This document shows positions 8,961-37,875 of a DNA stretch of 64,000 bases, one piece after another. Position 1 is the stretch's first letter. Each line of letters starts with the position of its first letter. The notes beneath the pieces are model-generated. The model was given only the letters and a program-made list of their open reading frames with translations, did no database searches and had not been told where the DNA came from. The position numbers and the translations under genes were made by a program. The DNA comes from an uncultured Verrucomicrobiae bacterium (GTDB lineage: Bacteria; Verrucomicrobiota; Verrucomicrobiia; Chthoniobacterales; JAFAMB01), in the NCBI GenBank assembly GCA_963762565.1, contig CAVXLD010000005.1, forward strand, positions 192,001 through 256,000, given 5' to 3'.

Positions 8961-9200
8961 GGGAGGGATCACGGCTTGTCCGCCATAGCCCTGATTTCGG
9001 TCGCGTCCTGTCGCGATGATGTTGGCGACGGCGGATCCTCGTGATCCGTTGTTCTCGAAGCCCAGCACAGACCCGATTGGACCGTTCGGCTATTCAGCGA
9101 CGCAGACCGGTTCGCGGCGCGCGGGGATCCGACTTCGCCGAGCCAATCGGAAAGCACGCCAAAGACCGCAGGCTACGTCGGACAGGCTGCGCGCCCTCCC
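8961..9200. repeat. Family A REPIN with nested inserts in both REP hairpins
   Basis: GGGAGGGATCAC...GCGCGCCCTCCC ends; each REP loop is interrupted by a TGTCCGNCRTAGCC...GGCGANGNCGGA element. Confidence 0.85.
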
Positions 9201-9307
9201 CGTCAGGGGACGATCATGCGTCGATCCTCTCTTTTTTCGGTTGCTAGGACTCGCAAGCTCGATAAGCATCCGGCTGTGTTGTCCGTTGTCTTTAATCACT
9301 GCTGCCC

Positions 9308-10336
9308 ATGAGAATTGCTTTAGATGCGATGGGTGGCGATTACGCCCCGAAAAATACAATTGAAGGTGCTGCCTTAGCGCTCCAAGCCCTGCCCGAGATT
9401 GAAAAGCTGGTTTTGGTCGGTAGCACCCCAGCTATCGAAGTCGAATTGCAGCGTGTGGGCTGTCGTGACTCGCGCATCGAGATTTTTCACGCCACCGAGG
9501 TTGTCGATATGCATGAATCCGCTGCCAGAGCCATCCGGCAGAAGAAAGATTCATCCGTCGCGCGAGCAATCGACCTGGTAAAGAATAATACAGTCCAAGC
9601 CATGGTGTCTGCCGGCCATACCGGAGCGGTAGTGGCGGCATCCGTATTGAAGTTGCGAACTCTCCCGGGCATCATTAGGCCGGCGGTCTCTTGTCTGATT
9701 CCTACCGAAACCAAGTTGTTCGTGCTGATCGATGCCGGCGCCAATCCCGATTCCGATGCCCATCACATGGTCCAATTCGCGATTATGGGCAGCATTTACG
9801 CCCGCTATGTCCTGAACCGACAGAATCCGAGGATCGGGCTGATGTCCATCGGTGAGGAGGACACGACTGGAAACGAAACCACCAAAGAGGCGTTCAAGCT
9901 ATTGAAACGCACCCGGTTGAATTTCTACGGGAACATTGAAGGCTTCGATCTATTTGCAAATCCGGTGGATGTGGTCGTTTGCGATGGATTCACCGGTAAT
10001 GTCGTGCTGAAGACGGCCGAAGCGGCGGCTATAGCTATTTTTGCATCTTTAAAGCACGAGCTCTTCAAGAGTCCGATTCGCAAGTTGGGAGCGTCCTTCG
10101 CCAAAGGCGCATTCCAGACTATCCGGCGGAAAATGAATCCGGATACCTACGGAGGCAGCCAATTACTGGGAGTCAATGGCATCTGCATCATTGCGCACGG
10201 CGCCAGTTCTCCACTGGCGATCAAAAACGCCATTCGCGCGGCTGCAGATTCAATCAAGTACGAACTGAACCCTCAGATTATCAAAGAGATCGAAGCCTGC
10301 GAGGCGAGTCTCAAGGAGACAGCGAATAGCCAGTAG
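9308..10336 (+). CDS. plsX: Phosphate acyltransferase PlsX
   Basis: MRIALDAMGGDYAP, SAGHTGA, DVVVCDGFTGNVVLKT, LLGVNG..IIAHG. Confidence 0.97.
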   Translation: MRIALDAMGGDYAPKNTIEGAALALQALPEIEKLVLVGSTPAIEVELQRVGCRDSRIEIFHATEVVDMHESAARAIRQKKDSSVARAIDLVKNNTVQAMVSAGHTGAVVAASVLKLRTLPGIIRPAVSCLIPTETKLFVLIDAGANPDSDAHHMVQFAIMGSIYARYVLNRQNPRIGLMSIGEEDTTGNETTKEAFKLLKRTRLNFYGNIEGFDLFANPVDVVVCDGFTGNVVLKTAEAAAIAIFASLKHELFKSPIRKLGASFAKGAFQTIRRKMNPDTYGGSQLLGVNGICIIAHGASSPLAIKNAIRAAADSIKYELNPQIIKEIEACEASLKETANSQ

Positions 10337-10352
10337 GGAGGCGGTCGGAACG

Positions 10353-10476
10353 GGGAGGGATCGCGTCCTCGCGATCCGTGAAGGCGTTCCTAACCTTGAG
10401 GCGTGTTTTTAGTCATTCAACAATCGCCTGGCGCTCGACTTCGCGAACAACGGCGCGCGGGGACGCGCGCCCTCCC
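10353..10476. repeat. Family A REPIN
   Basis: GGGAGGGATCGCGTCCTCGCGATCCG...CGGCGCGCGGGGACGCGCGCCCTCCC. Confidence 0.9.
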
Positions 10477-10517
10477 GATTTGGGCGAAGGCCGGCGTCTG
10501 TGTTCAAACTTTTTTCC

Positions 10518-10551
10518 GCAAAAGTCCGACAGAAATAGCAAAACTGCGACA
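10518..10551 (+). promoter_or_regulatory. Tandem direct-repeat operator, AraC-like
   Basis: GCAAAA-N3-CGACA twice at 20-bp period; same pair at 11999-12032. Confidence 0.6.
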
Positions 10552-17694: not shown

Positions 17695-18603
17695 CTAGGA
17701 AGCAAGCAACGCCTTACGTAGCTTGCACACCATCGTGTAAGCGGGATCGAATATGTTTCCTAGATCATATTCAACACATTGGCCGAGGAGAATGCTGGCG
17801 CTGACGGTGTCCAAGCCATAATCCTCGCCGAGCCAACGCAGCATTTCCGTTGTGGCATGCTGCACCGCTTGATCCAGCGGCCGAGCGTTCCCAACGGCGA
17901 AGATATATTCCTGGTTTTCGCCGCGAGGCCAACGAATCCGTTTTCCTTTGCTCAAGCGGACGGTGAATTGGACTTCCATCGAGATTTCTATCCCGGTACC
18001 GACGATCTCGCCGTCGCCTTGAGTGGCATGACCATCTCCAACATGGAGCAGAGCACCCGGCGCAAAGACGGGAAAATAGACCGTTACGCCCGCAGCAAAC
18101 CCTCGGTAATCCATATTTCCACCATGTTCAGCCGAGGTGTCAGTCGAGATCGCTTGGCCTTTCGACGGAGCTACTCCGAAGCAACCAAGCATCGGCGCCA
18201 GGGGGATGGTCAGATTTCTGAGCTTGGTATCTTTTTTCAGCAAACTGGCGGTTCCGCCCTTGTTATCGATCCGCCATTCCACCACGTCCGATTCGGGGAG
18301 CTGGCGAACAAAGGATGGATCCACCACATTCGGCGCGACCACCGAACGGGTGTACCCAATCGCCCGATTCGGCGAGATCCGATCTAACTCAACGACCAGG
18401 GTGTCACCCGGTTCTGCGCCATCGACGTAAAAGGGGCCGGTCTGGGGATTCCCTCGCGGTGTCACTTCCGTATCGCTCGCGTCCTTACCCCAAGCATCAA
18501 CCGTGGTCGTGATGACGGTATCGCCGTTCGCGATGTGCAACACCGGCGGATGCGAACCGATAACAGTGTGATAATGAGTGGGCTGGAAATGGTGGGTCGC
18601 CAT
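17695..18603 (-). CDS. Acetamidase/formamidase family protein
   Basis: NPQTGPFYVDGAEPGD, HGGNMD, GDGHATQGDGE, GTGIE. Confidence 0.93.
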   Translation of the reverse strand: MATHHFQPTHYHTVIGSHPPVLHIANGDTVITTTVDAWGKDASDTEVTPRGNPQTGPFYVDGAEPGDTLVVELDRISPNRAIGYTRSVVAPNVVDPSFVRQLPESDVVEWRIDNKGGTASLLKKDTKLRNLTIPLAPMLGCFGVAPSKGQAISTDTSAEHGGNMDYRGFAAGVTVYFPVFAPGALLHVGDGHATQGDGEIVGTGIEISMEVQFTVRLSKGKRIRWPRGENQEYIFAVGNARPLDQAVQHATTEMLRWLGEDYGLDTVSASILLGQCVEYDLGNIFDPAYTMVCKLRKALLAS

Positions 18604-18690
18604 GGTCTGATCTCACGCGATGTGGTCGTGGACGCAAGGACCGAGTGGGCGAAACGGCGAAACGGCGCACGCGCGAATGGGCGAGACGCC

Positions 18691-18964
18691 TGGAGGGGAG
18701 CCGCTTTGGCGCGTGCCCAAGAATCCCGCGAATTTGCTCCGTCATGATCACGGCCGAGAAGCGTGCACAACAAGCGGCTCCCGCGATTGACCCAGCGCTA
18801 CGTTAGTTCTCCGGCCCGCGCAGAAAACGAATCAATGAAGCGTTGGATGAAGCATCCCGTTGGGTAATTTCCGGGAGCCGCTTGCTTTCACGTTTTCAAG
18901 CCAGGCTCGCGATATGACAAATATCGTGAGGTCTTTAGGCGCGCGCCAAAGCGGCTCCCCTCCA
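18691..18964. repeat. Family B REPIN-like element (about 270 bp)
   Basis: TGGAGGGGAGCCGCTTTGG...CCAAAGCGGCTCCCCTCCA; internal GCGGCTCCCG / CGGGAGCCGC. Confidence 0.9.
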
Positions 18965-19016
18965 GGCGCTCCGCGCCCGGTCGCCGTCTCGCCCATTCGC
19001 CCATTCGCCGTTTCAC

Positions 19017-20567
19017 CTAGCCCTTCCGCTTCCGCCTCGGTTTGACCGGCTTCGAGTCGAACGACCAGCGCCCAAGGCGATAGGTGCGCGCGTAACCGGA
19101 TGTGCGGTTAGCAATGGTTACCGTTAGCGATCCACTGGAATCGCATTCGTATCGTTCCTCGATGTTCTGAGAGGCAGCTTCCGGCGAACGCACCACCGGC
19201 GTTTTTTGCAGGTCGCTCTTATTTGCCAGCGCAGGATCAAAGGGAAAACGGATTTCGTCCCAGAGCGCGATTTCGCCACTGGGCACTCCCGAAGGTGGAC
19301 GATGACTGCACTCCAAGAAACGGAAATGGCCGATATTGTGGGCAGGAGAATAGCAGCGGCTTAACGAGAGATTCGGCTCCCCGGGTGATGGTAATCTCAG
19401 TCCTTTTTCAAATAACGGATCGAAAATGATGCTGGTTCCGCCGTATCCTTCTCTCCACACACCGAAGTATCGGGAAAGATGTTCGCTTAACCGATAGGTG
19501 CCCGGCTGATCGGCTTGGATCGCCAGCCCAATGGCCGTTGCCGAACGGGCGTAAGCGGACCGTCGAACCCGCCGTCCAAATCGTTCCCGCAACATTCTCG
19601 AAACCAAAGGCATTTCACTTCCGCCGCCGGTGATATAGAGAACGTCGCACTCAGGGCTTAGATCCTCTGCTGCCCGAATCGTCTCTTCTACTGCCGGGCG
19701 AGCCGTTTCGTAAAAGTCTCCGATCGGAACCTGGACCGCTTGCCAATCCTGATTCGCGTGCTCCAAGTCAACCGTGATTCGGCGCGTATTGGGGTTTAAC
19801 GCCTCCTTTTTGAGCCGGCATTCTTCCAGGAGACGAAACCAAGCGGAGGCCGGCAGGTTGTCGATGGCCTTTTGACTGAGTCCAGCCACCTCCAAAGCGA
19901 GCTCAGCCAGCATCTGGTCGAAGTCGTCTCCGCCGATGGTGGGGATGCCCTCGGAAGCAACGACGTGATGCACATTCTCATCGAGCTTGACCAGCGAAGC
20001 ATCGAAAGTGCCGCCACCAAGGTCGTACACTAGAATCGTTTCCGGGCTACTCTTGCTCTGTCTCTTGCCGTGCCCGAATTCGATGCTCGCAGCACTGGGC
20101 TCATTCAACACACCGAGTACGTCGAATCCCGCGTTCCGAAACGACTCCACGGTAAGAAAACGCTGATTGCTATTAGCATGGGCGGGAACACCAAGAACAA
20201 TCTGCAGGGTCTCACCAGTGGGGGTCTGCAAGTTTGAGCGTTGGCGCAAGGTGGCCAACAAAGCGCTTGTGAGGCCGTCAAGCAGGGCAGCCAATTTCAA
20301 TTGGTTTTCACCAAGATCGAGGAGAGTTTGCGGGCCGGCGTCTTCCAACAACCGTTTTATCGAGCGAATCACCGTCCATGATTCGTCGCCTTGTTTATCG
20401 TAGGCGTCCCACCCGTACGACCGTTCATCGCCTCGGATCGCTACCAACGACGGAAACCAATCTGCCGAAGTTCCATCGGGTGCATCGAAGCTAACGAGTG
20501 GGTAATTGCCGCGATCGGCGGCAGCGACTACGATCCGATTAGTACCAAAATCAACACCTAACTTCAC
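19017..20567 (-). CDS. Hsp70-family protein (non-DnaK)
   Basis: GVDFGT, NEPSAA, VYDLGGGTFDAS, ITGGGS. Confidence 0.9.
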   Translation of the reverse strand: MKLGVDFGTNRIVVAAADRGNYPLVSFDAPDGTSADWFPSLVAIRGDERSYGWDAYDKQGDESWTVIRSIKRLLEDAGPQTLLDLGENQLKLAALLDGLTSALLATLRQRSNLQTPTGETLQIVLGVPAHANSNQRFLTVESFRNAGFDVLGVLNEPSAASIEFGHGKRQSKSSPETILVYDLGGGTFDASLVKLDENVHHVVASEGIPTIGGDDFDQMLAELALEVAGLSQKAIDNLPASAWFRLLEECRLKKEALNPNTRRITVDLEHANQDWQAVQVPIGDFYETARPAVEETIRAAEDLSPECDVLYITGGGSEMPLVSRMLRERFGRRVRRSAYARSATAIGLAIQADQPGTYRLSEHLSRYFGVWREGYGGTSIIFDPLFEKGLRLPSPGEPNLSLSRCYSPAHNIGHFRFLECSHRPPSGVPSGEIALWDEIRFPFDPALANKSDLQKTPVVRSPEAASQNIEERYECDSSGSLTVTIANRTSGYARTYRLGRWSFDSKPVKPRRKRKG

Positions 20568-20640
20568 TACCCGTATAGTGTAACGAAGTTGTGCAATCCG
20601 CTAGGCGGGCACTGCGTTTTTTAGAAGTTAAGAGTTCTTG

Positions 20641-20931: not shown

Positions 20932-21003
20932 ATCGCGGACACGCCGCTTCGCGCTTGTCCTTGCCCGTCCACCTTGATACGCTCACTCGCCGGAGGAAAA
21001 ACG

Positions 21004-24943: not shown

Positions 24944-24965
24944 GTCCCTCCCGGGAACGAAAGCA

Positions 24966-25239: not shown

Positions 25240-25256
25240 AGCGATTCAAACCTCTA

Positions 25257-25891: not shown

Positions 25892-25895
25892 GCGC

Positions 25896-26618
25896 CTACC
25901 AGCGTCCAGCATGGGCGCCCCCGTCGATGTGCAGGATTTCTCCAGTGACGAAGGTGGCCGATGTGAGATACAACACAGCGTCAACGATCTCCGAAATCGT
26001 AGCCAGCCGATGAATCGGATGAAGTTGACTTAGAAGGTTGTGATCGTCGTTTTCGTGCATCGGCGTATCAACTACGCCCGGGGAAATGGTATTGATGCGA
26101 ATCCCTTTTGCCGCGTATTCAATAGCAAGTGCCCGCGTAACCGCGTTCAAGCCGCCTTTGGTTAACAATTGTAGAGCGCAGGGAGCGCCGGCGAAAGGCT
26201 GGTCGACCAGCGATGTCGAGATATTGACGATATGTCCCGACTCCTGGTGCAGCATCTGCCGAATGGCGCCTTGAGTAATATAAAAGAAGCCTCCCAAGAT
26301 CGTCGATACGAGCGCATTGAAATCTTCCGTAGTGTACTCCGTGAATGGCTTAGGTATGAAAATTCCGGCATTATTGACCAGCACATCAATGCGGCCAAAT
26401 CGTTCTATCGCGGTATCAGCGACTTTCTGCGCCGTGGGGGCATCACCGATATCTCCGTCTACTAATGCAAGCCGGGATGAAGCGGTGAGGTCCGTCGATT
26501 TGGTAACGCTGCGTGAAGTGCCGACGACGTTATAACCCTCTTCCAAAAATCGACTTACTAGCCCGGCTCCAATCCCTTTGGATGCACCTGTTACAATTGC
26601 TGTTTTTTTCGTTGTCAT
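25896..26618 (-). CDS. SDR family oxidoreductase
   Basis: TGASKGIG, NNAG, VTGEILHIDGG; catalytic Tyr position reads L..TK. Confidence 0.92.
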   Translation of the reverse strand: MTTKKTAIVTGASKGIGAGLVSRFLEEGYNVVGTSRSVTKSTDLTASSRLALVDGDIGDAPTAQKVADTAIERFGRIDVLVNNAGIFIPKPFTEYTTEDFNALVSTILGGFFYITQGAIRQMLHQESGHIVNISTSLVDQPFAGAPCALQLLTKGGLNAVTRALAIEYAAKGIRINTISPGVVDTPMHENDDHNLLSQLHPIHRLATISEIVDAVLYLTSATFVTGEILHIDGGAHAGRW

Positions 26619-26627
26619 ACGCGTTTT

Positions 26628-27563
26628 CTACTTCAATCCCTGTTCCTTCATGAAGGCTTCGGTTAGCTGAATAATCTCCGCGGCTTTCAAATCCATCGCG
26701 AAATGTCCGGCCTTCAGGATATGAACCTCGGCCTGCGGATCATCGCGTCGATAGGCTTCGCCGCCGGCGACAGTAAAGGAAGTGTCGTACCGCCCCCAAA
26801 GCACCAGCATTGGAGGCTTATGATCCCGCAACCATTGTTGCCACTTCGGATAAGATTTTACGTTGTTTTGATAGTCGTAAAACAGGTCTAACTGGATATC
26901 CGCCTGTCCGGGCTGGTTTAGGAAGTAATATTCATCGACCCAGAGATCAGGATTGTACAATGAGAGATCAGGCGATGTTCCCACATGCCGTTTCTTCGTT
27001 GCCTCGAGCGATAGAAGGTTAGTTCGTACCTCGGATTCGTGGGCAGCTCGATCCTCCCAGAAAGCGCGACGAACGGTCCAAAGCGGCGATAATCCTTCTT
27101 CATGGGATACGGCATTTTGGATAATCATGGCTTGAATCTTGTCCGGATTTGCCAATGCCATGCGGAATCCAACGGGACCTCCGTAGTCTTGCATAAACAA
27201 AGTATATCGGGTCAGATGCAGTTCATCTGCAAAATCCTGCATTACTTTGGCGAGAGCGTCGAAAGTGTAAGCAAACTCTTTTGGGCTAGGCCAAGAGGAA
27301 TGACCAAACCCGGGATAGTCGGGCGCAACGAGATGATAATCTTCTGCCAGACTCGATTCCAATAGCGGTTGAAACATCCGAGATGATGATGGCAACCCGT
27401 GCAGAAGAAGGATGACCGGACCGTCTTTTGGCCCCGCCTCTCGATAGAATATGTTTAGACCGTCCACGTGAACGGACTGGTAGACGACAGCGGACGAAGT
27501 GGCAGCGGTGGCGGTATTCATAACGAAGAACAATGCCAGGAAAACAAAGCCAAGCGGCTTCAT
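26628..27563 (-). CDS. Alpha/beta hydrolase (epoxide hydrolase-like), secreted
   Basis: Signal peptide; HGLPSSS, APDYPGFG, QDYGG, AGHFA. Confidence 0.92.
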   Translation of the reverse strand: MKPLGFVFLALFFVMNTATAATSSAVVYQSVHVDGLNIFYREAGPKDGPVILLLHGLPSSSRMFQPLLESSLAEDYHLVAPDYPGFGHSSWPSPKEFAYTFDALAKVMQDFADELHLTRYTLFMQDYGGPVGFRMALANPDKIQAMIIQNAVSHEEGLSPLWTVRRAFWEDRAAHESEVRTNLLSLEATKKRHVGTSPDLSLYNPDLWVDEYYFLNQPGQADIQLDLFYDYQNNVKSYPKWQQWLRDHKPPMLVLWGRYDTSFTVAGGEAYRRDDPQAEVHILKAGHFAMDLKAAEIIQLTEAFMKEQGLK

Positions 27564-27575
27564 AGGTTAATACAG

Positions 27576-28094
27576 TTAAATTTCAAATATTGTCTCAACG
27601 ACCACCGGCGTGCTGACCGGCAAACTGTAAACGCCATAGACGACGCGTGTGTGTCCGGCCGCAGAACCGAAGAGTTGGACGAAGAGGTTCGAGGCTCCAT
27701 CCGCTACCGTCGCGTGCTCAGTAAAATCTTCCGTAGTTGCTAACTGGACCGTGACCTTTACTAACTTTTTAATCTTGTCTAAATCGCCGAGGTATTCTTC
27801 GGCTGCCGCTAACGCGGTTAATGCTGCTAACCGGGCGGCCTCCTGACCCTGGCTGACCGAAAGATCGCGCCCGATACGCCCTTTGAAAGCGAGTTTGCGA
27901 TCGATTAGCGGTAATGTGCCGCTGATATAGAGGAGAGAACCGGCTTGAGACGCCTCAACGTAGGCACCTAAAGGTGAGGGCGGCTTCGGTAACTCAATGC
28001 CCAGATCTCGGAGACGCGAACCTGCTTTGCCGGACTCTCCCAGGGTTTGAGATGCTGGGGTCACATCGGCGGTTGTTGCTACTGGCGGGTTCAT
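27576..28094 (-). CDS. RidA/YjgF family protein
   Basis: PLGAYV, LYISGTLP, VADGASNL, GHTR. Confidence 0.9.
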   Translation of the reverse strand: MNPPVATTADVTPASQTLGESGKAGSRLRDLGIELPKPPSPLGAYVEASQAGSLLYISGTLPLIDRKLAFKGRIGRDLSVSQGQEAARLAALTALAAAEEYLGDLDKIKKLVKVTVQLATTEDFTEHATVADGASNLFVQLFGSAAGHTRVVYGVYSLPVSTPVVVETIFEI

Positions 28095-28125
28095 GAAGCC
28101 ACCTTTTGCACTTCGTAAAGGGAGA

Positions 28126-28146
28126 ATCTATTGGACCAAAGTCCTA
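28126..28146 (-). promoter_or_regulatory. 21-bp shared motif, copy 1
   Basis: ATCTATTGGACCAAAGTCCTA, 31 bp upstream of the ridA ATG. Confidence 0.65.
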
Positions 28147-28163
28147 GGGTGATGGTCCGTGAC

Positions 28164-28441
28164 TGGAGGGGAGCCGCTGTGGATCGTACTGAAGGGACCC
28201 CGCACTATTTTTCTCGGCGCGTGGATGACCACAGATTTTTTTAAACAGGCGGCTCCCGCGAACGACCCAACATGTGTGTGTTTCCTCGTTCGTGAAAAAG
28301 AGTAATCGAACCAACCGTCGGGCAAAACGTCACCCTGGGTCATTCCCGGGAGCCGCCTGTTTAACCCGACATCTTGACCTACTTCGGACTGGGAAGAATA
28401 TGTAAGGTCGTTGAGGTATGCGCCAAAGCGGCTCCCCTCCA
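28164..28441. repeat. Family B element, followed by a family A half-REP with insert (28456-28510)
   Basis: Same terminal IR as 18691. Confidence 0.88.
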
Positions 28442-28521
28442 GGCACATCCTCGGGGCGCGCGGGGATCCTCCGTCGCTAAAGCTATGGCGGACAGGCAGC
28501 ACGCCCTCCCGGATTTCCCGC

Positions 28522-28830
28522 TCAAGGAACTTTTGCCGCTAGAACTCCAACCTTTTCGATCGTGGGCGGCTCCGCCAAAAGCTCGGGAGCCTTCTGCATC
28601 AGCGCCGCGGCCAACCGGCCGGATAGATGTGCCTCTCGGCCGGACTCGTCCACAAATGTATCGAAAATTCCAAAAGTCGATGGTCCAAGCTTAAGGGCGA
28701 ACCAAGTGGTCGTACCCGCCTCTTCCTGCGCAATGGATAGTCCTGCCTTGAGAAACTGTTCTGTTTCCGCCTCTTTACCAGCCTTCGCCTCTAAGCGAAC
28801 CAGCAGCGCCAAATTCGAATCTTGTTTCAT
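28522..28830 (-). CDS. Antibiotic biosynthesis monooxygenase (putative quinol monooxygenase)
   Basis: LLVRLEAKAGKE, WFA, FGIFDTF..ESGREAHL.G. Confidence 0.9.
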   Translation of the reverse strand: MKQDSNLALLVRLEAKAGKEAETEQFLKAGLSIAQEEAGTTTWFALKLGPSTFGIFDTFVDESGREAHLSGRLAAALMQKAPELLAEPPTIEKVGVLAAKVP

Positions 28831-28865
28831 TTTGCGTCTAGGTTTTCTAAGTGTGCTGTCCCATA

Positions 28866-29108
28866 AATAACATGGCTTTCGCCGTCGGCCAGTTGGCTGT
28901 TTTTCAAGGCGCGAGCGAAGCGCCCATATCTGATTCATACGGGTCGAGCGAGCAACGCGGAAAAACAGCCAACTGGCCACGGCCCGGAGGGTTGCGATGA
29001 AAATGGGCCGGCGGCTGCGTTGCTCGTCGGTTACGTATCGATCTAGATATGCGCTCTCCTCGCGCCTTGCCGGCGGCCCATTTTGATCGCAACGAAAGCC
29101 ATGTTATT
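28866..29108. repeat. Long imperfect palindrome, family H
   Basis: AATAACATGGCTTTCG...CGAAAGCCATGTTATT; inner GGCCAGTTGGCTGTTTTTC IR; related end at about 44165. Confidence 0.8.
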
Positions 29109-29400
29109 CATGGGACAGCACACTAAGGTTGTTGTTTCGTTCAACGCGCGAGCCAAGGCGGCATCTGCGCCACAAGGTCCGCGCCATCACAAGTCGATGT
29201 CAGCGTAGTCTAGGGAGCGGTTTCAGTCCATTCCCGGCAATTTGGCTATCAGCGGCTGTTGCGGCGCCGCTATCAGCGCAGCTGATAACCGATCGCGAGA
29301 CGGAACTCCGTAAAGTACGGAATATCGGACGTGCATTTGTACAAATCCAGCTACGTACAACGTCCTCGTCGGCAGCTAGAAACAGCGCACCAGAAGGGGG

Positions 29401-29415
29401 TGGCATGCAACTTGT
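29401..29415 (+). promoter_or_regulatory. Sigma54-like promoter
   Basis: TGGCATG-CAAC-TTGT (GT instead of GC at -12), about 15 nt before ATG 29430. Confidence 0.45.
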
Positions 29416-29429
29416 TATACAAATTTTCC

Positions 29430-30407
29430 ATGAGTCTTCGTTATTTCAGAAGCCTTTTTCTGCCTGGTCTTCGACTGGAATACAGGCCTTTCATTAGCGT
29501 CCTACTTGCAATCGGCTTAGCCGGACCGGTGTTGGCAGAGAAGAAGCTTAACTCTGTTGCTGTAACGGTAGGGGATCTCGGCAATCCTTTTTTTGTGCAG
29601 ATCGCGCACGGTGCGCACGATCAAGCAGCGAAAATCAACCCGGCGGTGAAATTCACGGCGCAATCGAGCAATTACGATGTTAATAACCAGGCTAACCAGA
29701 TCGATAACTTTATCTCTGCTGGCGACCAGTTGCTGATTTTGAACGCGGCCGACAGTAAAGGGATCGCGCCAGCGGTTATTCGGGCGAAAGCGGCCGGTAT
29801 GACCGTGATCGCCGTCGACGTCACTGCAGCCGGGGGCGTCGATGCTACCATTACTTCAAACAATAAGCAGGCAGGGGAGATAGCCGGGCAGTACCTCGCG
29901 GATCGTTTGAAGGGTAAGGGAAATGTTGTGATTGTAAATGGACCGCCGGTTTCATCCATTGCCGACCGGGTAGCGGGTTTCCTTGAGGTAATGAAGAAAT
30001 ATCCGGGCATCAAAATTCTGTCCCAAGACCAAAACGGTGGTGGTAGCAGAGATGGCGGTCTGCGGGTGATGACGGATTTATTGACTGCGTTTCCAAAAAT
30101 CGACGCCGTCTTTTCCATCAATGACCCGCAAGCTGTAGGCTGCGATTTGGCTGCTAAACAGGCCGGCCGAAAAGATTTCTTTATCGTCAGCGTCGATGGC
30201 GCTCCCGAAGTAGTGCCTTTTCTCAAGGATCCGAATAGCTTAGTCGCGGTTACTGCCGCCCAGGATCCTTATACCATGGCAGAGAAAGCCGTGAGCGTGG
30301 GTTACGACATTATGAATGGCAAGAAGCCAGAGTCACCAACCATTCTGATTCCGGTGCAGTTGATCACCAAAGAAAATGTCAATACCTACCAAGGATGGAC
30401 TAAGTAA
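29430..30407 (+). CDS. Ribose-type sugar ABC substrate-binding protein
   Basis: LGNPFF, VIAVD, NDP.A.G, VSVDG, AAQDP. Confidence 0.92.
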
Positions 30408-31929
30408 CGAGCAGCCGCTCCTGGAAGTACGCAAGATCAGTAAGAGTTTTCCAGGAGTACGTGCTCTCAATAGCGTCGATCTTCGGATCTGGCCCGGTGA
30501 GGTGCATGCCTTGATGGGTGAAAACGGCGCCGGCAAGAGCACGTTGATGAAAATCCTCTCCGGAGCCTATCATCCAGACTCCGGTGAGATTTTGATAGAT
30601 GGGAAAGCAGTACAATTCCGTAATCCTTACGATGCGCGAGCGGCTGGAATCGGCATCATTTATCAAGAACTAACGGTTGCGCCGAATCTGACGGTGACCG
30701 GTAACGTTTTTCTTGGATCCGAGCTTAAGCGGTTTGGGTTCATGAAAGATACGGCAACCATGGATCGAAAAACCCAAGAGGTGCTGCACCGGCTTGGGGC
30801 CAGGTTTCAAGCATCGGATCGCGCGGCGAATCTGGTAGTGGCGGAACAGCAACAGGTCGAAATTGCGCGCGCCCTATTTCATAAGAGCCGCGTGCTGGTT
30901 ATGGATGAACCGACAGCGGCTCTTTCCGATCGCGAGACTACCCGGCTTTTTGAAATTGTGAAGCAACTCCGTTCCGAAGGACTTGCTATCATCTACATCA
31001 GCCACCGTATGGCCGAGGTTTACGAGTTGGCCGATCGTCTCTCCGTGCTCCGAGACGGCGAGTACGTTGGCGAACTCAAACGCGCCGAATTTTCTGCTGA
31101 TAAGGTAATCGAGATGATGGTTGGCCGGCGGGTAGAAGAGTTCTATGAACGCGCCAGCCACACGGCAGGGCCCGTTGTCTTGGACGTCAAAGATGTGGGC
31201 GACGGCAAACGGGTGAAACACGCCAGCTTTCGGCTCCGGAAAGGCGAAGTGGTAGGACTGGCCGGACTGGTCGGAGCGGGTAGAACCGAGCTGGCCAGAA
31301 TGGTTTTTGGGGCCGACAAACGGAAGTCAGGCGACATCTTTCTAGACGGGCGAAAGCTAAAGATTAACCGGCCGCTGGACGCTATCCGGTCGGGGATCGG
31401 CTACGTGCCGGAGGACCGAAAGCTGCAAGGTCTTTTTCTCCAGATGTCGTCTTCAGCAAATATAACGATGAATATCCTCGGGCGTAGTGCGACCGGCGGC
31501 GTCCTGAACTTTGGTAAGCTAAAGGAACGAGCCAAAGCCGAGGTAGCGGCCATGCACGTGCGCACGGCGTCACTTGCATCTGTGGCCGGAGGGCTGTCCG
31601 GCGGTAACCAGCAAAAGCTCCTATTGGCGCGCTGGCTGGAAATTCAGCCGAAAGTTTTGCTGTTGGATGAACCAACTCGAGGTGTGGACGTAGCAGCCAA
31701 AGCCGAGATCTACGCGTTGATCCAGCGGTTGGTCGAAAAAGGGATGGCCGTGTTATTCATCTCCAGCGAATTGCCGGAAGTCGTCGGCGTGTGCGACCGA
31801 GTCCTGGTCATGCGAGAGGGAGAAATCTCGGGCGAGGTTGGGGGTGATACTGGGATCGAAATTACTCAGCAAAACATCATGAAACTGGCGACAGATGTCG
31901 CTCGGAGTGAACTAAACAATGGCAACTGA
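30376..31929 (+). CDS. Sugar ABC ATP-binding protein (RbsA-like)
   Basis: [25 protein letters not shown]. Confidence 0.95.
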
Positions 31930-32910
31930 TATCTTAAGCCAACCGACCGATCTGGCGCCAACGAAGCGTAAGGATCTCAGGCGTTCCTGATTCAAGTGGC
32001 GGGCATGCTTCCCGTGCTCATTCTCATTTGTATTTTGTTTGCAGTTCTCACCCCAAATTTTCTGACGGAGAACAATATTATCAACGTCGTGCGCCAGGCT
32101 TCGATCAACATCGTGTTAGCCGCAGGAATGACGTTTGTGATTCTCACCGGTGGAATCGATCTATCCGTCGGCTCTGTGCTCGGGCTTACCGCGGTGATTG
32201 CGGTCGTGGTTTCCTTGGTTCCACAACTCAGCTGGGCGGCTGTTCCGGCGGCTTTGTTGGCCGGATTAGTGATCGGCGTATTAACCGGGGCAATCGTCGC
32301 CTACATGGGATTGCCGCCCTTTATCGTTACACTTGGGACCTACACCGCCATCCGGGGCGCCGCCTACCTGGCCGCGGGAGGCACCACGGTTATTAATAGT
32401 AACATTGACTTTGCTTGGATCGGGAATGGTTACTTTGGGCCGATTCCCTGGTTAGTCATCCTTGCGCTTATCACCATCGCAGTCAGCGCGTTTATCCTGC
32501 AGGGCACAGTTTTGGGGGTGCATGTGTATGCGGTGGGTGGCAACCCGCAAGCTGCCCGGCTGACGGGCATCCCAGTCTCGTCCGTATTAATCTTTGTGTA
32601 CGGCGTCAGCGGGCTACTTTCCGGCCTGGGTGGAGCGATGAGCGCGAGTCGTCTATATAGCGCTCAAGGTCAGCTAGGTATCGGCTATGAGTTGGATGCG
32701 ATCGCGGCAGTGATATTAGGTGGTACCAGTTTCTCGGGCGGGATTGGGAATGTTTTCGGGACTTTGGTTGGTGCACTAATTATTGCTGTGCTCAATAATG
32801 GCCTAACTCTGCTGAACGTCTCGTTCTATTGGCAACTGGTCATAAAAGGAGCGGTTATCGTCCTGGCGGTTGCACTCGATAAACTGCGGACCCGCGGCCA
32901 GGCCGCGTAA
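31919..32910 (+). CDS. Sugar ABC permease (RbsC-like); probable 1-nt frameshift near 31978
   Basis: [30 protein letters not shown] 31919 is one base out of frame with the ORF starting at 31996. Confidence 0.9.
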
Positions 32911-33083
32911 GGGATGAAGGTTTAACACTTTAACTCGGAGCATTTATGCCAGCACTTTTCGTTTCGTGGATTGCAATGACTGTCCTGATGACAGCCGCGC
33001 TTGTTCACGCCCTGAGAAGGGACTAGTGATCCGCAGAGATTTTTGCAAAGCGGTTTCGACCAGCCGCGAAGCGGCTATAGACG

Positions 33084-33295
33084 GGGAGGGCGCGCTGCCT
33101 GTCCGCCATAGCTTTAGCGACGGAGGATCCCCGCGCGCCGCGAGGACATGCCACGACCCCAGGCGTATTTTCGTGTACGACCGTGAGAGTCCCCAGCTCC
33201 GTTAACAACGGATCGCGAGGATCCGACGTCGCCAACATCTCGAAGAAAAGAGCCTGAAGGCAGAAGGCTATGTCGGACAGGCAGCGATCCCTCCC
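33084..33295. repeat. Family A REPIN with nested inserts in both REPs
   Basis: Left insert has a 2-nt loop; right insert has a 32-nt loop identical to the one near 36010. Confidence 0.9.
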
Positions 33296-33513
33296 GGGCG
33301 TTGGGCGGCACGCAATCCCAGGAAGAAGCGCCTCCCGAGTGGCGCTCGACGTCGGTACGATCATTCGAACGGCCAGCATTTCGAGCGATTAGGCTTCGCA
33401 ACCGAGAATCTATAACCTGCACATATTCAGCAAGTTATGATTATGAAGCCAGTTGGCACAGAAAGTGATCCAAGGTTTCAGAAACAGAAGATTCATTGAG
33501 GAGGAGCCTCATT

Positions 33514-33639
33514 ATGATAATCCGTTCAACCATCAAAAACATTTACTATCCAAGACCAGAAAAAGGCGGACGCATTGTCCACCGAAGCGGAAGAATTCGT
33601 TACGTTCACGGTGCGCTCGTGGTGCAGTCGAAGGGCTGA
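33514..33639 (+). CDS. Small hypothetical protein (41 aa)
   Basis: GAGGAGG RBS; MIIRSTIKNIYYPRPEKGGRIVHRSGRIRYVHGALVVQSKG; sigma54-like site at 33454. Confidence 0.5.
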   Translation: MIIRSTIKNIYYPRPEKGGRIVHRSGRIRYVHGALVVQSKG

Positions 33640-33684
33640 TCGGCTCTTCGTTCTTGTCCTTCCGCCTTCGCCGACGCCCTGGTT

Positions 33685-33742
33685 GTGGAGCGCGCCTCGC
33701 TTGCGAGGCCGACATTGGGCGGTCGGCAACGTAGAGCGTGGG
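33685..33742. repeat. Family D REP-like element
   Basis: GTGGAGCGCGCCTCGCTTGCGAGGCCGAC...CGGCAACGTAGAGCGTGG; copies at 34875 and 55672-55854. Confidence 0.8.
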
Positions 33743-33972
33743 CTACGGCGGACGAGCTGTCCTCGAATCCAGGCGAGCAGAGTGACTGAGTATTGGAGTA
33801 CTGCGCTAGTTGGAATTACCCCCGCGGTCGCGGGGTTGGGTTGCTGAATGGGCACACCGACGGGTGCTCAGTCTAATCGCTTCCCTCGTCGCCCTTGCAG
33901 ACTCGTTGTTGTGGAGCGCACCTTCCCGCGGCCGCTGGATGAGGCCGATCTTGGCCAGATCTTAACGCGGTG

Positions 33973-34072
33973 CTCCAATGCTCCATTACTCCATTACTCC
34001 ATTACTCCATTACTCCACTACTCCACTACTCCACTACTCCACTACTCCACTACTCCACTACTCCACTACTCC
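33973..34072. repeat. Octamer tandem repeat (CTCCAYTA)n, about 12 units
   Basis: Directly visible; shorter relatives at about 5935-5965 and 23652-23688. Confidence 0.95.
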
Positions 34073-34198
34073 GCTCGGCTGGCTATCTAGTGCGGCTCGC
34101 AGAACGTATCCTACCCGGCAAGTGCCAGGCAGAAAAGAAAGGCCGACATGCAGAGGAGTAGAATAAAGGTCTCCATTGTTAGGCGCTAAATGGCTGGT

Positions 34199-34510
34199 CT
34201 AACAGCTTGCATCTAAACCGTAGCCGCGTGCGACCCACTCGCAGAATCGTTTGGCTTCACCGACGGTCTTGGCAGAGCTGAGTACGGCATAACAATCTCC
34301 GGCAAAAGAAAACATCGCCGAAAACATGCCGCCGACTCCGGAGTTAATCTCGAATTTTGCCGGTCCGATTCTGCCGACGAAATACTGAGCCTGCTCGTGA
34401 TTTTCCCAGCTTATCCGTCGACCAGGCCTCAGGTTTAAGCCTTCGGTGCGGCCGTGTGAATCCTCGGGTCCCAGTTCGGCGACAGGATGGGCTTTTGGTT
34501 CGTCTTTCAT
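34199..34510 (-). CDS. Hypothetical protein (103 aa)
   Basis: ATG-initiated ORF outside repeats with protein-like composition; no family recognised. Confidence 0.5.
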   Translation of the reverse strand: MKDEPKAHPVAELGPEDSHGRTEGLNLRPGRRISWENHEQAQYFVGRIGPAKFEINSGVGGMFSAMFSFAGDCYAVLSSAKTVGEAKRFCEWVARGYGLDASC

Positions 34511-34930
34511 TGCTTTCAGTCACAGTGACATCATTTTCTGTGCCAAAGTCGTGGACATCTACAACACTCTCATAGTGTTGTCCTTATAAGGTTTGAGCCG
34601 ATAGGTTACTCAGAACGAAAAACGGGAAGTTCTGAGAATCGTCTCTCGGTTCCACGCTCGGGCTTCGTGTTCGTCCTCGATTCGGCTCCTGGGGGACCGA
34701 CATGTGCAAGACGTCAGACGGGGCCGGGGAGCCGCGGCGGTCCTGGAACTGGGACGGCTGATGCCGATTTTGTAACGGTTTGGTAGCCGTCGATCCTGGC
34801 ACAGTAACGTCAACACCTGTGATCACCTCGTGTGGATCCCCGGGGCGCGATCTTTCAGTTTACGTTGCCGATTTGTGTAGCGCGCCTCGCTTGCGAGACC
34901 GACTTCGAGCGTTCGGCAACGTAGAGCGTG

Positions 34931-35052
34931 GGGAGGGCGCGCGTCCCCGCGCGCCGCGAGGACCTGCCACCAGCTGGCGGCGTATTTTCGTCTCCGATCA
35001 AAACACGTCCTCGGTTTCAATCAAAACGGATCGCGAGGACGCGATCCCTCCC
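34931..35052. repeat. Family A REPIN
   Basis: Canonical ends. Confidence 0.9.
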
Positions 35053-35107
35053 GGCGATGGACCCGAAAAGCATCCGCCTTGGCGGCTTGTAGATGCTGAA
35101 GGAATAG

Positions 35108-35142
35108 TTGAAAAGCAAGGCTGATGCGATAGCATCTGATGC
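35108..35142 (+). promoter_or_regulatory. Leaderless promoter with operator palindrome for vapBC
   Basis: TTGAAA-N16-TAGCAT, ATG 7 nt later; GATGC-GATA-GCATC overlaps the -10. Confidence 0.65.
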
Positions 35143-35388
35143 ATGCGCACTACGCTAGACGTCGATGATGACGTGCTACAGGCCGCCAAGGAACTCGCGC
35201 GGCGACACAAGAAGACTGCCGGGAAAATGCTGTCTGAGTTGGCTCGGAGAGGTCTAACCCTCCCGCAAGTCGGTTCGACAATCTCGACGGAGCCAGCCTT
35301 TCTCGGTTTTGAGCCGTTTCCCCGTCGCGGAGGTGTCGTCACAAACGAACTGATCAACCAGATCCGCGCCGCGGAGGCAGGGGAGTGA
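35143..35388 (+). CDS. vapB: VapB-type antitoxin (RHH/CopG)
   Basis: MRTTLDVDDDVL.AAKELAR...G..LSELARRGL. Confidence 0.9.
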   Translation: MRTTLDVDDDVLQAAKELARRHKKTAGKMLSELARRGLTLPQVGSTISTEPAFLGFEPFPRRGGVVTNELINQIRAAEAGE

Positions 35389-35816
35389 GACGTGCCCTGC
35401 TCGACATCAATATTCTGATAGCGTTACTCGATCTTGATCATTCCCATCACCAGGAAGCCAGAAAGTGGCTTGAACGAGAAGCCAAATACGGTTGGGCGTC
35501 CTGCCCAATTACGCAAAACGGCTGTATCCGGGTGATGTCTCAGCCGAGCTATTTGAACCCGTTGCCGGCCAGATCTGTAATTGCTCGATTAGCAGTCGCA
35601 ACTCGCTCGAACTATCATGAGTTCTGGCCCGACGACATCAGCATTCTGAACGAGTCTTTGGTCCGAGCCGAACGGCTGCACGGACCGAAACAACTGACCG
35701 ATATTTATCTGTTGGCTCTAGCGGCGCATCATGATGGGCGGTTCATCACCTTTGATGGAACTGTGCCGGCATCGGCTGTGGTGAACGCCCGGAAGAATCA
35801 TCTGGTTGTTATTTAG
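35385..35816 (+). CDS. vapC: VapC PIN-domain toxin
   Basis: LLDINILIAL, CPITQNG, QLTD.YLLALA, TFD; GTGA overlap with the antitoxin. Confidence 0.92.
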   Translation: MRRALLDINILIALLDLDHSHHQEARKWLEREAKYGWASCPITQNGCIRVMSQPSYLNPLPARSVIARLAVATRSNYHEFWPDDISILNESLVRAERLHGPKQLTDIYLLALAAHHDGRFITFDGTVPASAVVNARKNHLVVI

Positions 35817-35888
35817 GCGGGCGTGTGGAGCGTGGCGTCCCGCGGCCGCGCCTGCGCGTCAACATAAGCGTTCGAGGAGCCCCTGACA

Positions 35889-36072
35889 GGGAGGGCGCGC
35901 GTCCCCGCGCGCCGTGATGGTGTTCTCGAAGCCAACGGTGTATTTTCCGTCCTTGATTAGGCTAGGCTGTGGGCTTCGGGAACGACGGATCGCGAGGATC
36001 CGACGTCGCCAACATCTCGAAGAAAAGAGCCTGAAGGCAGAAGGCTATGTCGGACAGGCAGCGATCCCTCCC
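35889..36072. repeat. Family A REPIN with nested insert
   Basis: Right REP insert identical to that in the 33084 element. Confidence 0.9.
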
Positions 36073-36121
36073 AGCGCTGGGTCGGCAGCCGCCACCTGCT
36101 CAAGAGCCGAGTGGAATTGGA

Positions 36122-37690
36122 ATGATTCAATTTTCTGCAAAAACAGCGCGGATGGCATTCGCTGCTTTGCTTCTGTTTGCCAATGCAGATTGGGTTACCG
36201 ATTCGGCGGCATCGCCGGCCTCACTGTCAGTATTCGTCAAAAAAGCAGACGACGCCTACCGAAATCTTCCAGGCTCGATTGCGACTTACAATCTTGCCAT
36301 GCGAGAACTTTGCCTGGAGATGGAGGTCGAAAGTCCCCGGCAATTCGCCTCGAATTTAAGGAGGTTGGGGGTAGAGTTCGATTCGCCAAAGGTCGCGCTT
36401 CCGCTGAGGCGTATTCAGGTTGCCGCCTTTTCACCCGGATCGGATTGGAAACAGATCGGTGTTCCGTTAGTAGTTGGTTATGAAACGAAAGACGCGCCGC
36501 TTTATCCACCGGAGGGTCTTTTCGTGGACGGTACCGCAATCTATGAGCGGGCAAGGGGACACGCGAAATTTTTGATAGTCTCCCACAAGAACGATGTCCT
36601 GCTCAACGGGCGTTCTTATTCACTTGCTGCAAATCACAATGCGGCCGGCGATCACTTAAAGCTCAGGGCAAAACGTCTCGCGGCCTCGGGGTTTGCGGGC
36701 ATGATCCGTCCGCTCTCAGCGTCGCGGAAGCCGCAGATTTATCTCCTGGATCCGTATGATCCGAACAAAATACCACTGTTGATGGTGCACGGTTTGCAAT
36801 CGACGCCGGTGGGATTCGCCGCGCTCGTGAATGCGCTTCGCGATGATCCGGAAGTTCGGGCCAAATATCAGATCTGGCAGTTCTATTACGCGAGTGGCAC
36901 CCCTGTTTTGCTTAACGCTTTGGAGCTTCGAGACAGTCTGAAGGAGACGCTCCAGCGGCTTGATCCAAAAGATCGCGATGCTGCCACGAAGCGGATCGTG
37001 GTGCTTGGGCATAGTATGGGTGGCGTTATTTCACACACGCTGGTGAGTTCTAGCGACGATCGAGTTTGGGGAAGTGTCTTCCGAGTTCCTCCGGATCACC
37101 TGAAAGGCGATCGCGAAACAATTCATGAATTGGCGCGCATTCTCTTTTTCCGCCGGAACCCGCGTGTCGTACGGGTGATTTTCATGGCGGCGCCGAATCG
37201 CGGCAGCCCGATAGCCGATTCGTTGGCGGGGTTAATCGGCAACTCTCTTACCCGCGAGGCTCCGATGCTTGAACACGGATTCAGCCAGTTGGCCCGTTTG
37301 AATCCGCAAGCGATGACTCCGGAGGCAGCGGTTTACTATCGGGGCCGATTTTCCGCAGTGCGAACGCTTTCGCCGCGAAGCCCGGCGCTAATAGCGGTTT
37401 CCAAGCTGCCAATAGAAGTTCCTTACCACAGCGTGATCGGACAGCATTATTCAGGTCCGAAGGACCGAGGATCGGATGGGGTAGTGCCATACTGGAGCAG
37501 CCACCTGGACGGATCCCAATCTGAGCTGATCGTGCGGAGTGGACACGGAGGCATCATCTCCAACCGCGACGCACTGGGTGAGACCATTCGGATTCTGCAT
37601 GTCGAAGATCGTCTCAGGAGACTGCCCATCCTGCGGCCCGATTCACCGAAGCACGAAGGGTGGGGAGGGCGCGCTGCCTGTCCGACATAG
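36122..37690 (+). CDS. Alpha/beta hydrolase (lipase/esterase family)
   Basis: PYDPNKIPLLMVHGL.S, GHSMGG, SDGVVPY.SSHL. Confidence 0.88.
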   Translation: MIQFSAKTARMAFAALLLFANADWVTDSAASPASLSVFVKKADDAYRNLPGSIATYNLAMRELCLEMEVESPRQFASNLRRLGVEFDSPKVALPLRRIQVAAFSPGSDWKQIGVPLVVGYETKDAPLYPPEGLFVDGTAIYERARGHAKFLIVSHKNDVLLNGRSYSLAANHNAAGDHLKLRAKRLAASGFAGMIRPLSASRKPQIYLLDPYDPNKIPLLMVHGLQSTPVGFAALVNALRDDPEVRAKYQIWQFYYASGTPVLLNALELRDSLKETLQRLDPKDRDAATKRIVVLGHSMGGVISHTLVSSSDDRVWGSVFRVPPDHLKGDRETIHELARILFFRRNPRVVRVIFMAAPNRGSPIADSLAGLIGNSLTREAPMLEHGFSQLARLNPQAMTPEAAVYYRGRFSAVRTLSPRSPALIAVSKLPIEVPYHSVIGQHYSGPKDRGSDGVVPYWSSHLDGSQSELIVRSGHGGIISNRDALGETIRILHVEDRLRRLPILRPDSPKHEGWGGRAACPT

Positions 37691-37875
37691 CCTGAGGCAA
37701 CCAATCGATTTTTCTCCCAGCGGGGCGACGTCGGATCCCCGCGCGCCGTTAGGAGGACGTGCCATGACCCAAGGCCATATTTTTGTCCGCGATTACAACC
37801 CGTCCGCGGCTTCGTTGACGAAGCGGATCGCGAGGACGCGATCCCTCCCGGGCGCGCGGGGACGCGCGCCTCCCC
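37663..37875. repeat. Family A REPIN with 31-nt-loop insert plus extra half-REP
   Basis: Directly visible; overlaps the end of the hydrolase gene. Confidence 0.88.

Follow-up and report, generated by a model that had tools for sequence, protein, structure and literature searches.

Nested palindromic repeats of the REP/REPIN kind in a Verrucomicrobiae genome, with centres that are probably inherited

The stretch analyzed here (the window: 64,000 nucleotides (nt), positions 192,001 to 256,000 of contig CAVXLD010000005.1, or G000:C5:192001-256000) belongs to the genome of an uncultured Verrucomicrobiae bacterium, G000, an assembly of 6.12 Mb in 15 contigs with 54% G+C and 94% completeness. It carries repetitive extragenic palindromes (REPs) of a family that we call family A, and seven of these hold a second hairpin with a variable segment at its apex. 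We conclude that they are probably nested repeats of the REP/REPIN kind (REPIN, REP doublet forming hairpins), built in three layers, with centres that were inherited and not captured as foreign DNA. They are not a new immune-like system but an elaborate form of known selfish repeats, and the elements are non-coding and probably selfish. Throughout, the module is the whole inner hairpin, the clamp is its paired arms, and the filler is the segment at its apex.

A preliminary description of this DNA had reported seven REP ends with a second hairpin, with loops of 33, 31, 2, 2, 32, 32 and 31 nt and an identical copy near 36010, and all of this is as described (Table 1). Read directly from the sequence, the seven family-A units are DNA palindromes of three layers. 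In the window there are 7 copies of the inner left arm TGTCCGNCRTAGC, where 0.02 would be expected (0/100 shuffles reached 7), and 20 copies of the REP head GGGAGGGMKCRC, where 0.13 would be expected. The inner hairpin had been said to replace a single G of the canonical repeat. Its position is indeed fixed, but the canonical 25-mer folds as GGGA[GGCGCGCG]TCCC[CGCGCGCC] (read from the sequence), so the "single G" is the last base of the 5' arm, and the module, GCYTGTCC...GGA, is placed beside that base (G, A or T) and before the TCC(C/T) loop. The G is retained at 8973, and among the 22 module-bearing copies listed for the relative G012 it is retained in 2. The unit at 28455-28510 (minus strand) stands without an adjoining partner REP unit. 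The units at 33210-33295 and 35987-36072 carry the same filler, yet their adjoining linkers are unrelated.

Genome-wide, a strict definition yields 533 family-A units. They are hairpins of 25 nt and come in two sequence types, called C-type (GGGAGGGCGCGC...) and A-type (GGGAGGGATCGC...). As had been claimed from the window, empty states are found alongside filled ones: 414 units have a short tip of 0-2 nt, 18 a mini hairpin, 96 a hairpin with filler, and 5 some other tip. Among C-type units, 225 have a tip of 0-2 nt, 18 an insert of 28-36 nt and 48 an insert of 55-68 nt; the corresponding A-type counts are 189, 0 and 48. The module is present in about one family-A unit per five, and a looser unit definition gave the same three modes at 1, 32 and ~61 nt. 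A strict regular expression for the hairpin returned 136 matches in G000, with loops of 2 nt (22), 11, 14 or 21 nt (4 together), 29-35 nt (89), 40 nt (1) and 57-70 nt (20). The genome-wide check of loop length that the preliminary description had proposed therefore gives discrete classes and not a continuous distribution.

We parsed the fillers of 95 of the 96 long inserts. The large majority (86/95) join one loose cluster with clear subfamilies inside it, the nearest genomic neighbor outscores all 20 of the filler's own shuffles in 79/95, and 63/95 match another module copy at E<=0.01. Many have near-identical copies at unrelated loci of G000. No filler (0/95) matched non-module DNA of this genome; the 14 with apparent "outside" matches all trace to three decayed or variant modules. 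Whole-doublet queries gave only chance-level matches to 50,697 phage records (best E=0.2) and to 72,556 plasmid records (best E=2), in collections with few if any phages of this group. A similar filler (...ggtttctcccag...) lies within an A-type unit of another species, G003 (locus L010), and the clamps of relatives hold 2, 5, 12-16, 21 or ~28 nt, with sequences alike within each length class. On the head strand, fillers are on average 67% pyrimidine, and 66/95 exceed 60%.

Which subfamily a filler belongs to goes with the arm variant and the type of the outer REP, and each subfamily is tied almost strictly to one REP type. One subfamily (tgatgcatcc... / tgatgcatccaatcgattttctccca...) is C-type, one (ttctcttcctgg... 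/ ttctcttcctggtttcttttctcccag...) is A-type, and a third (tgcggtctt... / tgcggtctttggcgtg...) carries GTAGCC/GGCGAAG arms. The exception is a pair of C-type copies of an otherwise A-type filler; cross-type events do occur, rarely. The "empty" 2-nt hairpins inside REPs nearly all have the arm variant CCGCCATAGCT-tt-AGCGACGGAGG, unlike most filled ones, and on this comparison of arms they are a separate lineage and not vacant acceptors. The near-constant length of the fillers and their unlike sequences had been the starting point for the idea of capture. The lengths stand, and the sequences are unlike because they belong to different subfamilies, each with further copies in the genome; near-constant length would then reflect common descent and not a measuring or capture step. 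The alternative that the preliminary description itself had offered, fast-diverging homologues, is thus the better reading. Most of what it had listed as speaking against capture was found, except that the lengths are discrete where it had named a continuous range.

The inner hairpin has a distribution of its own. It reads TGTCCGNC-(G/A)TAG-C...G-CGA(A/C)G-GNCGGA, in which a 3x3 internal loop separates a stem of 6 bp from one of 3 bp. Relaxed parsing of G000 recovered 230 complete clamps, of which 117 lie in REPs, 67 in a stand-alone repeat that we call class 3 (ggattcgaggacagCCTGTCCGCCGTAGCC - 67 nt - GGCGAAGGCGGAaggacgacgac) and 46 elsewhere. In five copies of the class-3 repeat the 28-nt mini hairpin sits in the apical loop of an internal GC hairpin, cggcctcgc|...|agcgaggcg, a host unrelated to REPs; two of the five were compared and their interiors differ. 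Across the phylum, the clamp pattern was present in 83 of 401 sampled genomes and 51 of 185 genera, whereas a reversed control had 0 matches in every genome, and the 28-nt clamp is conserved nearly letter for letter across those 51 genera. It also occurs in 50 stretches of IMG/VR contigs filed as viral (loci L161-L210), several of them near-identical to one another. In distant genomes the 28-mer TGTCCGCCGTAGCCTTGGCGAAGGCGGA is the center of a palindrome whose left arm repeats TTGTCCGCCGTC and whose right arm repeats AGCCTTGGCGAAGGCGGA. The paired stem positions co-vary, one showing A:T 145 times and C:G 70 times and another T:A 219 times and C:G 9 times; G:T stem pairs are seen on the head strand, and the internal loop has the variants ATA/GAC (117), GTA/GAA (46) and GAA/GAA (41). 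Since the module is found without a surrounding REP in many distant genomes, it is an independent entity; it is also ancient.

Family A, its doublets and the nested form were present in four of five genomes of the same genus and in a second genus. Canonical units outnumber module-bearing ones 106 to 22 in G012, which belongs to another genus, and 119 to 12 in G003, and the doublet spacing in both is that of G000. The canonical and module-bearing states are both old.

Most units (376/533) pair as 188 tail-to-tail doublets, in which a C-type unit is followed by a linker of 60-80 nt (mode 72) and an inverted A-type unit. Whether one half carries the module is independent of the other half: 121 doublets have none, 31 have it only in the C half, 25 only in the A half and 11 in both (odds ratio (OR) 1.7, p=0.19, n=188). 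Linkers have a mean identity of 62% and a recognizable consensus that starts with gcGAGGACGTGcc and contains an internal inverted repeat, GAGGACGTG...CACGTCCTC, with the complement CACGTCCTC ~40 nt on (for example at window 33140-33209). Because the consensus holds this complement, the linker is an additional hairpin. Module presence barely tracked linker similarity (C halves 0.38 vs 0.22 permuted, p=0.03; A halves 0.08 vs 0.19). In 167 pairs of module-bearing units with <=2 mismatches, likeness stopped at the unit borders, reaching a median of 0 nt past the head and 4 nt into the linker. Similarity that ends at these borders indicates that the block recently copied or homogenized is about one REP plus its module, within older doublets.

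The analysis shows the anatomy, the copy numbers, the subfamilies, how old and widespread the module is, and that external matches and a bracketed gene are lacking. The first layer is the lineage-restricted 25-nt family-A hairpins, usually in tail-to-tail doublets with a ~72-nt linker. The second is the older, phylum-wide hairpin module, which follows the 5' stem arm and precedes the TCC(C/T) loop, and the third is the cargo at the module's apex, either TT or a ~31-nt filler that is mostly pyrimidine-rich. The following history would fit these observations. The module may have reached the REP apex by insertion, the apex being the only place where a palindromic insert would spare the host hairpin. 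From there, units of REP plus module could have been distributed over the doublets already present, either through copy-and-paste or through short-tract gene conversion among REPs of one type. The filler would be copied along with the module and the REP arms, giving few subfamilies of fixed length that later drift apart. Copying of whole REP units, or conversion between like REPs, is favored over free hopping of the module by the copying at unit borders and by the near-strict tie between filler and REP type. Of the site-specific insertion put forward in the preliminary description, what holds is a separable module at one fixed REP-loop position, in a class-3 loop (5 copies) and stand-alone in the phylum; the insertion itself is what we infer.

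We searched for orthologous sites by window-flank searches and by local BLAST of 54 loci of relatives against G000, and compared 13 intervals whose flanks matched. At window 8946-9308, the spacer that follows the PhoH/PIN gene is 44 bp without a repeat in G004, holds a canonical doublet in G003, and holds modules in both halves of the doublet in G000. Beyond this interval, intergenic repeats show near-complete turnover between species of one genus (for example G000:C14:139712-140014, C4:87079-87243 and C13:46254-47179), such that a spacer with a family-A doublet in one species may in another have a class-3 repeat, a RAYT-type REP pair (RAYT, REP-associated tyrosine transposase) or nothing. Parts of window 28100-38000 occur in 20 sequencing runs, all of them metagenomes and 19 labelled soil, with no RNA run among those listed. 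In Logan contigs of four runs over 18400-38300, the listed long contigs of run X1 that reach 28455, 33084, 35987 and 37663 stop inside the units.

The preliminary description had expected an HUH/RAYT-type partner gene flanked by the motif, and we did not find one. G000 has 12 loci matching Y1_Tnp, five of them RAYT-sized, and each of these five is bracketed by other REP families. Family A flanked none of the 12 on both sides, in an assembly that at 94% completeness may lack such a gene; up to three loci in G000 have a family-A head beside a RAYT-sized gene on one side only. Y1 loci bracketed by clamps numbered 0/12 in G000, 0/30 among those fetched from relatives (G002-G005/G012) and 0/30 among those fetched from distant, clamp-rich genomes (G233/G216/G387/G210). 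One genome of 94% completeness, G338, has 16 clamp matches and no Y1_Tnp match. Over the 401 genomes, 20 had both clamp and RAYT homologue, 63 the clamp only, 52 the RAYT homologue only and 266 neither, a weak association (OR 1.62, p=0.11) that is uncorrected for kinship. An unbiased search for genes bracketed by inverted elements returned 26 genes with no shared family and 0 blastp links.

One RAYT-like gene does have hairpins reminiscent of the module. This 149-aa gene, G000:C9:102235-102681, is bracketed by several small hairpins within C9:102100-102820 (locus L004 1330-2060), of the forms TAGC-stem-GAA-stem-GCGA (TAGCGGCGAAGCCGCGA, TAGCAGCGAAGCTGCGA) and ATAGCCTAGGG-TGAAG-CCCTAGG. These REPs share their frame with the top of the module, (G/A)TAGC-stem-loop-GCGA(A/C)G, and one IMG/VR clamp (L166) bears exactly GTAGCGGCGAAGCCGCGAAG as its top, matching that frame. 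The counterpart of the gene in another genus (L072) has kept ATAGCCTAGG hairpins on both sides, with a clamp-like hairpin just beyond one of them. We also tried the PDDEXK_3 ("GxxExxY") nuclease as a partner and rejected it: none of its 14 matches in G000 is clamp-bracketed, and their flanks hold other word repeats. At one of these loci, C11:64902, a clamp-like GCCGTAGGCTTTGCGAAGGCGGA lies within a long flanking inverted repeat, which is insufficient for a link.

Several results weigh against the history proposed above. At 8946-9308 the flank junctions of the G003 and G000 doublets differ and their linkers are 66% identical, a value that ranks tied fourth to sixth of 188, so the two doublets may be separate arrivals. 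None of the other 11 interspecies intervals showed a shared family-A doublet, and no insertion event was caught. Neither the REP layer nor the module layer could be linked to an enzyme. Sixteen of the 95 fillers are indistinguishable from shuffles, and common descent is assumed there; about four (C3:146889, C1:314539, C1:444837 and C10:274133) look unique. For unlike fillers, descent would account for the 29-35-nt length only by assumption. The nested fold was recovered in 4/6 units by single-stranded DNA folding, and its stability compared with shuffles was not unusual (z -1.64 to +1.02, 6 units). An ancestral long form that lost its inner hairpin precisely would yield the same states, and the direction is unproven.

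We consider it unlikely that the module is a tiny non-autonomous mobile element in its own right, 28-60 nt long, excised and pasted specifically into apical hairpin loops without target duplication by an enzyme acting in trans, for example of the Y1/HUH RAYT kind. Such an element would explain why a module with the same borders occupies one fixed loop position in two REP types and also the loop of the class-3 GC hairpin (5 copies), where the interiors of the two copies compared differ. Duplicated flanks are seen at none of the REP or class-3 junctions, and HUH enzymes (IS200/IS605) leave none. The hairpin ends and the lack of duplication would be compatible with single-strand transposition of the IS200/IS605 type, and the likeness of the upper module to the REPs of the C9 RAYT-like gene, down to the exact match in L166, points the same way. 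REPs are moreover targets of insertion sequences (IS), according to the excerpts available of Tobes and Pareja 2006 (PMC1525189). Opposed to this are the absence of clamp-bracketed Y1 loci in all three sets, the 16 clamp matches of G338 in a genome without a Y1_Tnp match, and the weakness of the co-occurrence with RAYT homologues. Free transposition also suits the near-strict tie of filler to REP type less well than would the copying of a REP together with its module or homology-dependent conversion. In its widest form the proposal would make the phylum-wide 28-nt hairpin the smallest mobile DNA, inserted and excised precisely and without duplication at a target defined by the shape of a hairpin tip and not by sequence, with nested layers carrying 31-nt or 67-nt cargo; we regard that version as doubtful too.

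It is improbable, in our view, that the long form is ancestral. On that reading, replication slippage would have deleted the inner palindrome precisely, and the resulting common 25-nt REP, with one base at its tip, would then have out-multiplied the long form, the states being stages of decay. Palindromes are prone to precise deletion, three discrete lengths would fit single deletion events, and neither form is visibly younger because both coexist in two genera at similar ratios. On the other hand, the module occurs without any REP in many distant genomes and in the loops of other hairpins, the same deletion end points would be needed independently in both REP types, and the REP-nested 28-nt form has its own arm variant and not the arms of filled forms.

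A role of the hairpins as RNA seems to us quite improbable. The clamp would then be a protein-binding or stabilizing 3' untranslated element and the pyrimidine-rich filler a functional single-stranded region. The units do lie directly after or between ordinary genes, stem pairs co-vary with G:T pairs on the head strand, the filler bias toward pyrimidines is on that same strand, and the sequence of the 28-nt core is retained across the phylum; the internal loop, GUA/GAA or AUA/GAC, is what we take to be reminiscent of loop-E or sarcin-ricin motifs. Yet the two units of a doublet face each other, so that one transcript carries one unit as its complement, folds were no stabler than shuffles, and co-variation in DNA palindromes can arise without selection on RNA. 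At gathering score, Rfam 15 matched the window only at two Acido-Lenti-1 sites elsewhere and at none of the seven units, and at E<=1 it matched nothing over 32900-38000 or at the class-3 locus.

The dispersed repeat-spacer system of the preliminary description, in which REP loops acquire spacer-sized foreign DNA, is largely refuted and hardly tenable: the narrow filler lengths (29-35 nt in 89/136 strict matches) and the few fillers without a recognizable relative would suit it, but 79/95 fillers have genomic relatives, many near-identical at unrelated loci, none matches non-module DNA, the best phage and plasmid matches are at chance level, a similar filler occurs in the sister species G003, the clamps of relatives hold contents alike within each length class, and no bracketed or recurrent neighboring gene was found.

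Nested, inherited REP-type repeats can be set beside several known systems, using for the cited papers the excerpts available of each. As described for REPIN/REP doublets (Bertels and Rainey 2011, PMC3116915; Nunvar et al. 2010, PMC2817692), family A consists of GC-rich, intergenic palindromes in hundreds of copies, arranged in inverted pairs with conserved spacing and inherited by lineage. It is accordingly a high-copy short intergenic palindrome in inverted doublets of conserved spacing, as REPs and REPINs are. It differs from the REPINs of those excerpts in having halves of two sequence types and a linker that diverges far faster than the ends. It differs from the REPIN-RAYT systems described there in flanking no RAYT on both sides (0/12 Y1 loci) and in carrying a second hairpin in ~1/5 of units; a cognate RAYT flanked on both sides by the same REPs was found neither in G000 nor among the 30 + 30 further loci.

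Nesting of REPs is itself on record. In the excerpted text of Di Nocera et al. 2013 (PMC3733652), REP dimers or elements are inserted in longer palindromes (A. variabilis GTAG-15, T. roseum GTAG-23, H. neapolitanus CGTC-1), some REP families have short and long self-complementary loops of up to 27 bp in Bradyrhizobium, and GTAG repeats are abundant in the verrucomicrobium O. terrae. The GTAG class is defined there by a terminal GTAG directly before a stem-loop of 6-9 bp. Our inner module likewise has GTAG or ATAG followed by a stem-loop, but by comparison with that textual description its tag is internal, inside the 6-bp TCCGNC/GNCGGA stem, and the next stem is 3 bp. The module thus lacks the terminal GTAG and 6-9-bp stem-loop of the class as given in these excerpts, and family A has no GTAG. 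A further difference from the cases excerpted is that the nesting host is here itself a REP family and that a 31-nt filler forms a third layer.

IS1397 inserts in the REP loop, and bacterial interspersed mosaic elements (BIMEs) and enterobacterial repetitive intergenic consensus (ERIC) sequences are mosaic repeats with internal insertions. In the excerpts of Tobes and Pareja 2006, IS1397, IS621, ISKpn1 and ISPpu9/10 land specifically within REPs; the insert here is, by contrast, 28-62 nt, non-coding and itself a hairpin, and no transposase was found for it. Miniature inverted-repeat transposable elements (MITEs) are comparable as small non-coding elements with inverted ends and with short and long forms, and the module arms can be read as inverted ends of 12-14 bp. 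The module is nevertheless far below the MITE size of 70-300 bp stated in the excerpts of PMC3733652, and no target-site duplication is seen at REP or class-3 junctions. CRISPR arrays share with family A the palindromic repeats flanking variable segments of 30-33 nt, but the copies here are scattered as single units or doublets, the "spacers" form families of repeats for which no external match turned up, and no genes go with them. In the literature on REPs in general we found no publication on the 28-nt clamp.

These results remove a tempting false lead, since palindromes around segments of ~32 nt resemble a scattered CRISPR. They also provide an uncommonly clear example of palindromic repeats built in layers, hundreds of copies falling into three discrete states. 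If placement at the hairpin tip is real targeting, it would offer a testable model for the building of mosaic repeats such as BIMEs and nested REPs, and, in a soil phylum that has been little studied, the 28-nt clamp is a concrete candidate for a site bound by a protein or acted on by an unknown enzyme.

Table 1 Family-A units, fillers and linkers in the window (positions are those of the window; G000:C3 is another contig of the genome)
Feature	Positions	Strand	Details
A-type family-A REP unit with nested module	8961..9047	+	head GGGAGGGATCAC; clamp arms 8977-8990 and 9024-9035
33-nt filler	8991..9023	+	inner-hairpin apex; sparsely populated CCGCC/GGCGG-arm group
Linker, 68 nt	9048..9115	.	inside tail-to-tail REP doublet
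C-type REP unit with module	9116..9200	-	head GGGAGGGCGCGC; module arms GTAGCC/GGCGAAG; 31-nt filler 9140-9170
C-type REP unit with mini hairpin	28455..28510	-	head GGGAGGGCGTGC; 28-nt mini hairpin TGTCCGCCATAGCTTTAGCGACGGAGGA at 28467-28494, TT apex
C-type REP unit with mini hairpin	33084..33139	+	28-nt mini hairpin at 33100-33127, identical to that at 28467-28494; 2-nt loop near 33113
Doublet linker	33140..33209	.	
A-type REP unit with module	33210..33295	-	32-nt filler 33234-33265
Canonical C-type REP unit	35889..35913	+	single-base apex G; pairs with the unit at 35987-36072
A-type REP unit with module	35987..36072	-	filler (near 36010) identical to 33234-33265
C-type REP unit with module	37663..37747	+	31-nt filler 37693-37723, identical to the copy at G000:C3:539049
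A-type REP head	37838..37849	-	partner of the unit at 37663

The neighbors of the units in the window are ordinary genes, directly 5' or flanking, including PhoH/PIN, PlsX, an ABC permease and a hydrolase. A 547-aa open frame at window 36047-37690 (plus strand) has weak alpha/beta-hydrolase matches under the Pfam cut-offs. As listed, its ATG falls within the clamp of the 35987-36072 unit, and its real start probably lies farther downstream. The frame ends with the TAG contained in the ATAG of the clamp of the 37663-37747 unit, and the repeat therefore provides its stop codon. Just beyond, at 37748-37768, the linker variant gttAGGAGGacgtgccATG resembles a ribosome-binding site with a start codon.

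The window also holds a class-3 repeat on the minus strand at ~33640-34100, which reads TCCGCCTTCGC...67 nt...GCTACGGCGGACG and then agctgtcctcgaatcc. Beyond its hairpin there are a second, related hairpin and a tandem stretch of ACTCC-type words, and the orthologous spacers of G003 and G004 are without any of these. Among the genes adjoining class-3 repeats none recurs; they include genes for a baeRF-like protein, an amidohydrolase, a WYL regulator, glucose-6-phosphate dehydrogenase (G6PD), a major facilitator superfamily (MFS) protein and, ~1 kb off, a DDE transposase, the others being unassigned.

The two Rfam Acido-Lenti-1 matches, at window 55357-55402 (minus strand) and 55523-55568 (plus strand), together form one inverted doublet, each match being one arm. 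The words of this doublet, GTCCCGAAGGGAC, GGACTCAGCCTGGGGTTTCAACCCCAGG and GCGCCCTGAAAGGGCG, closely resemble the repeats bracketing the RAYT-sized Y1 gene at G000:C1:119032-119367, and by this resemblance the Acido-Lenti-1 "sRNA" (small RNA) motif looks here like a RAYT-associated REP.

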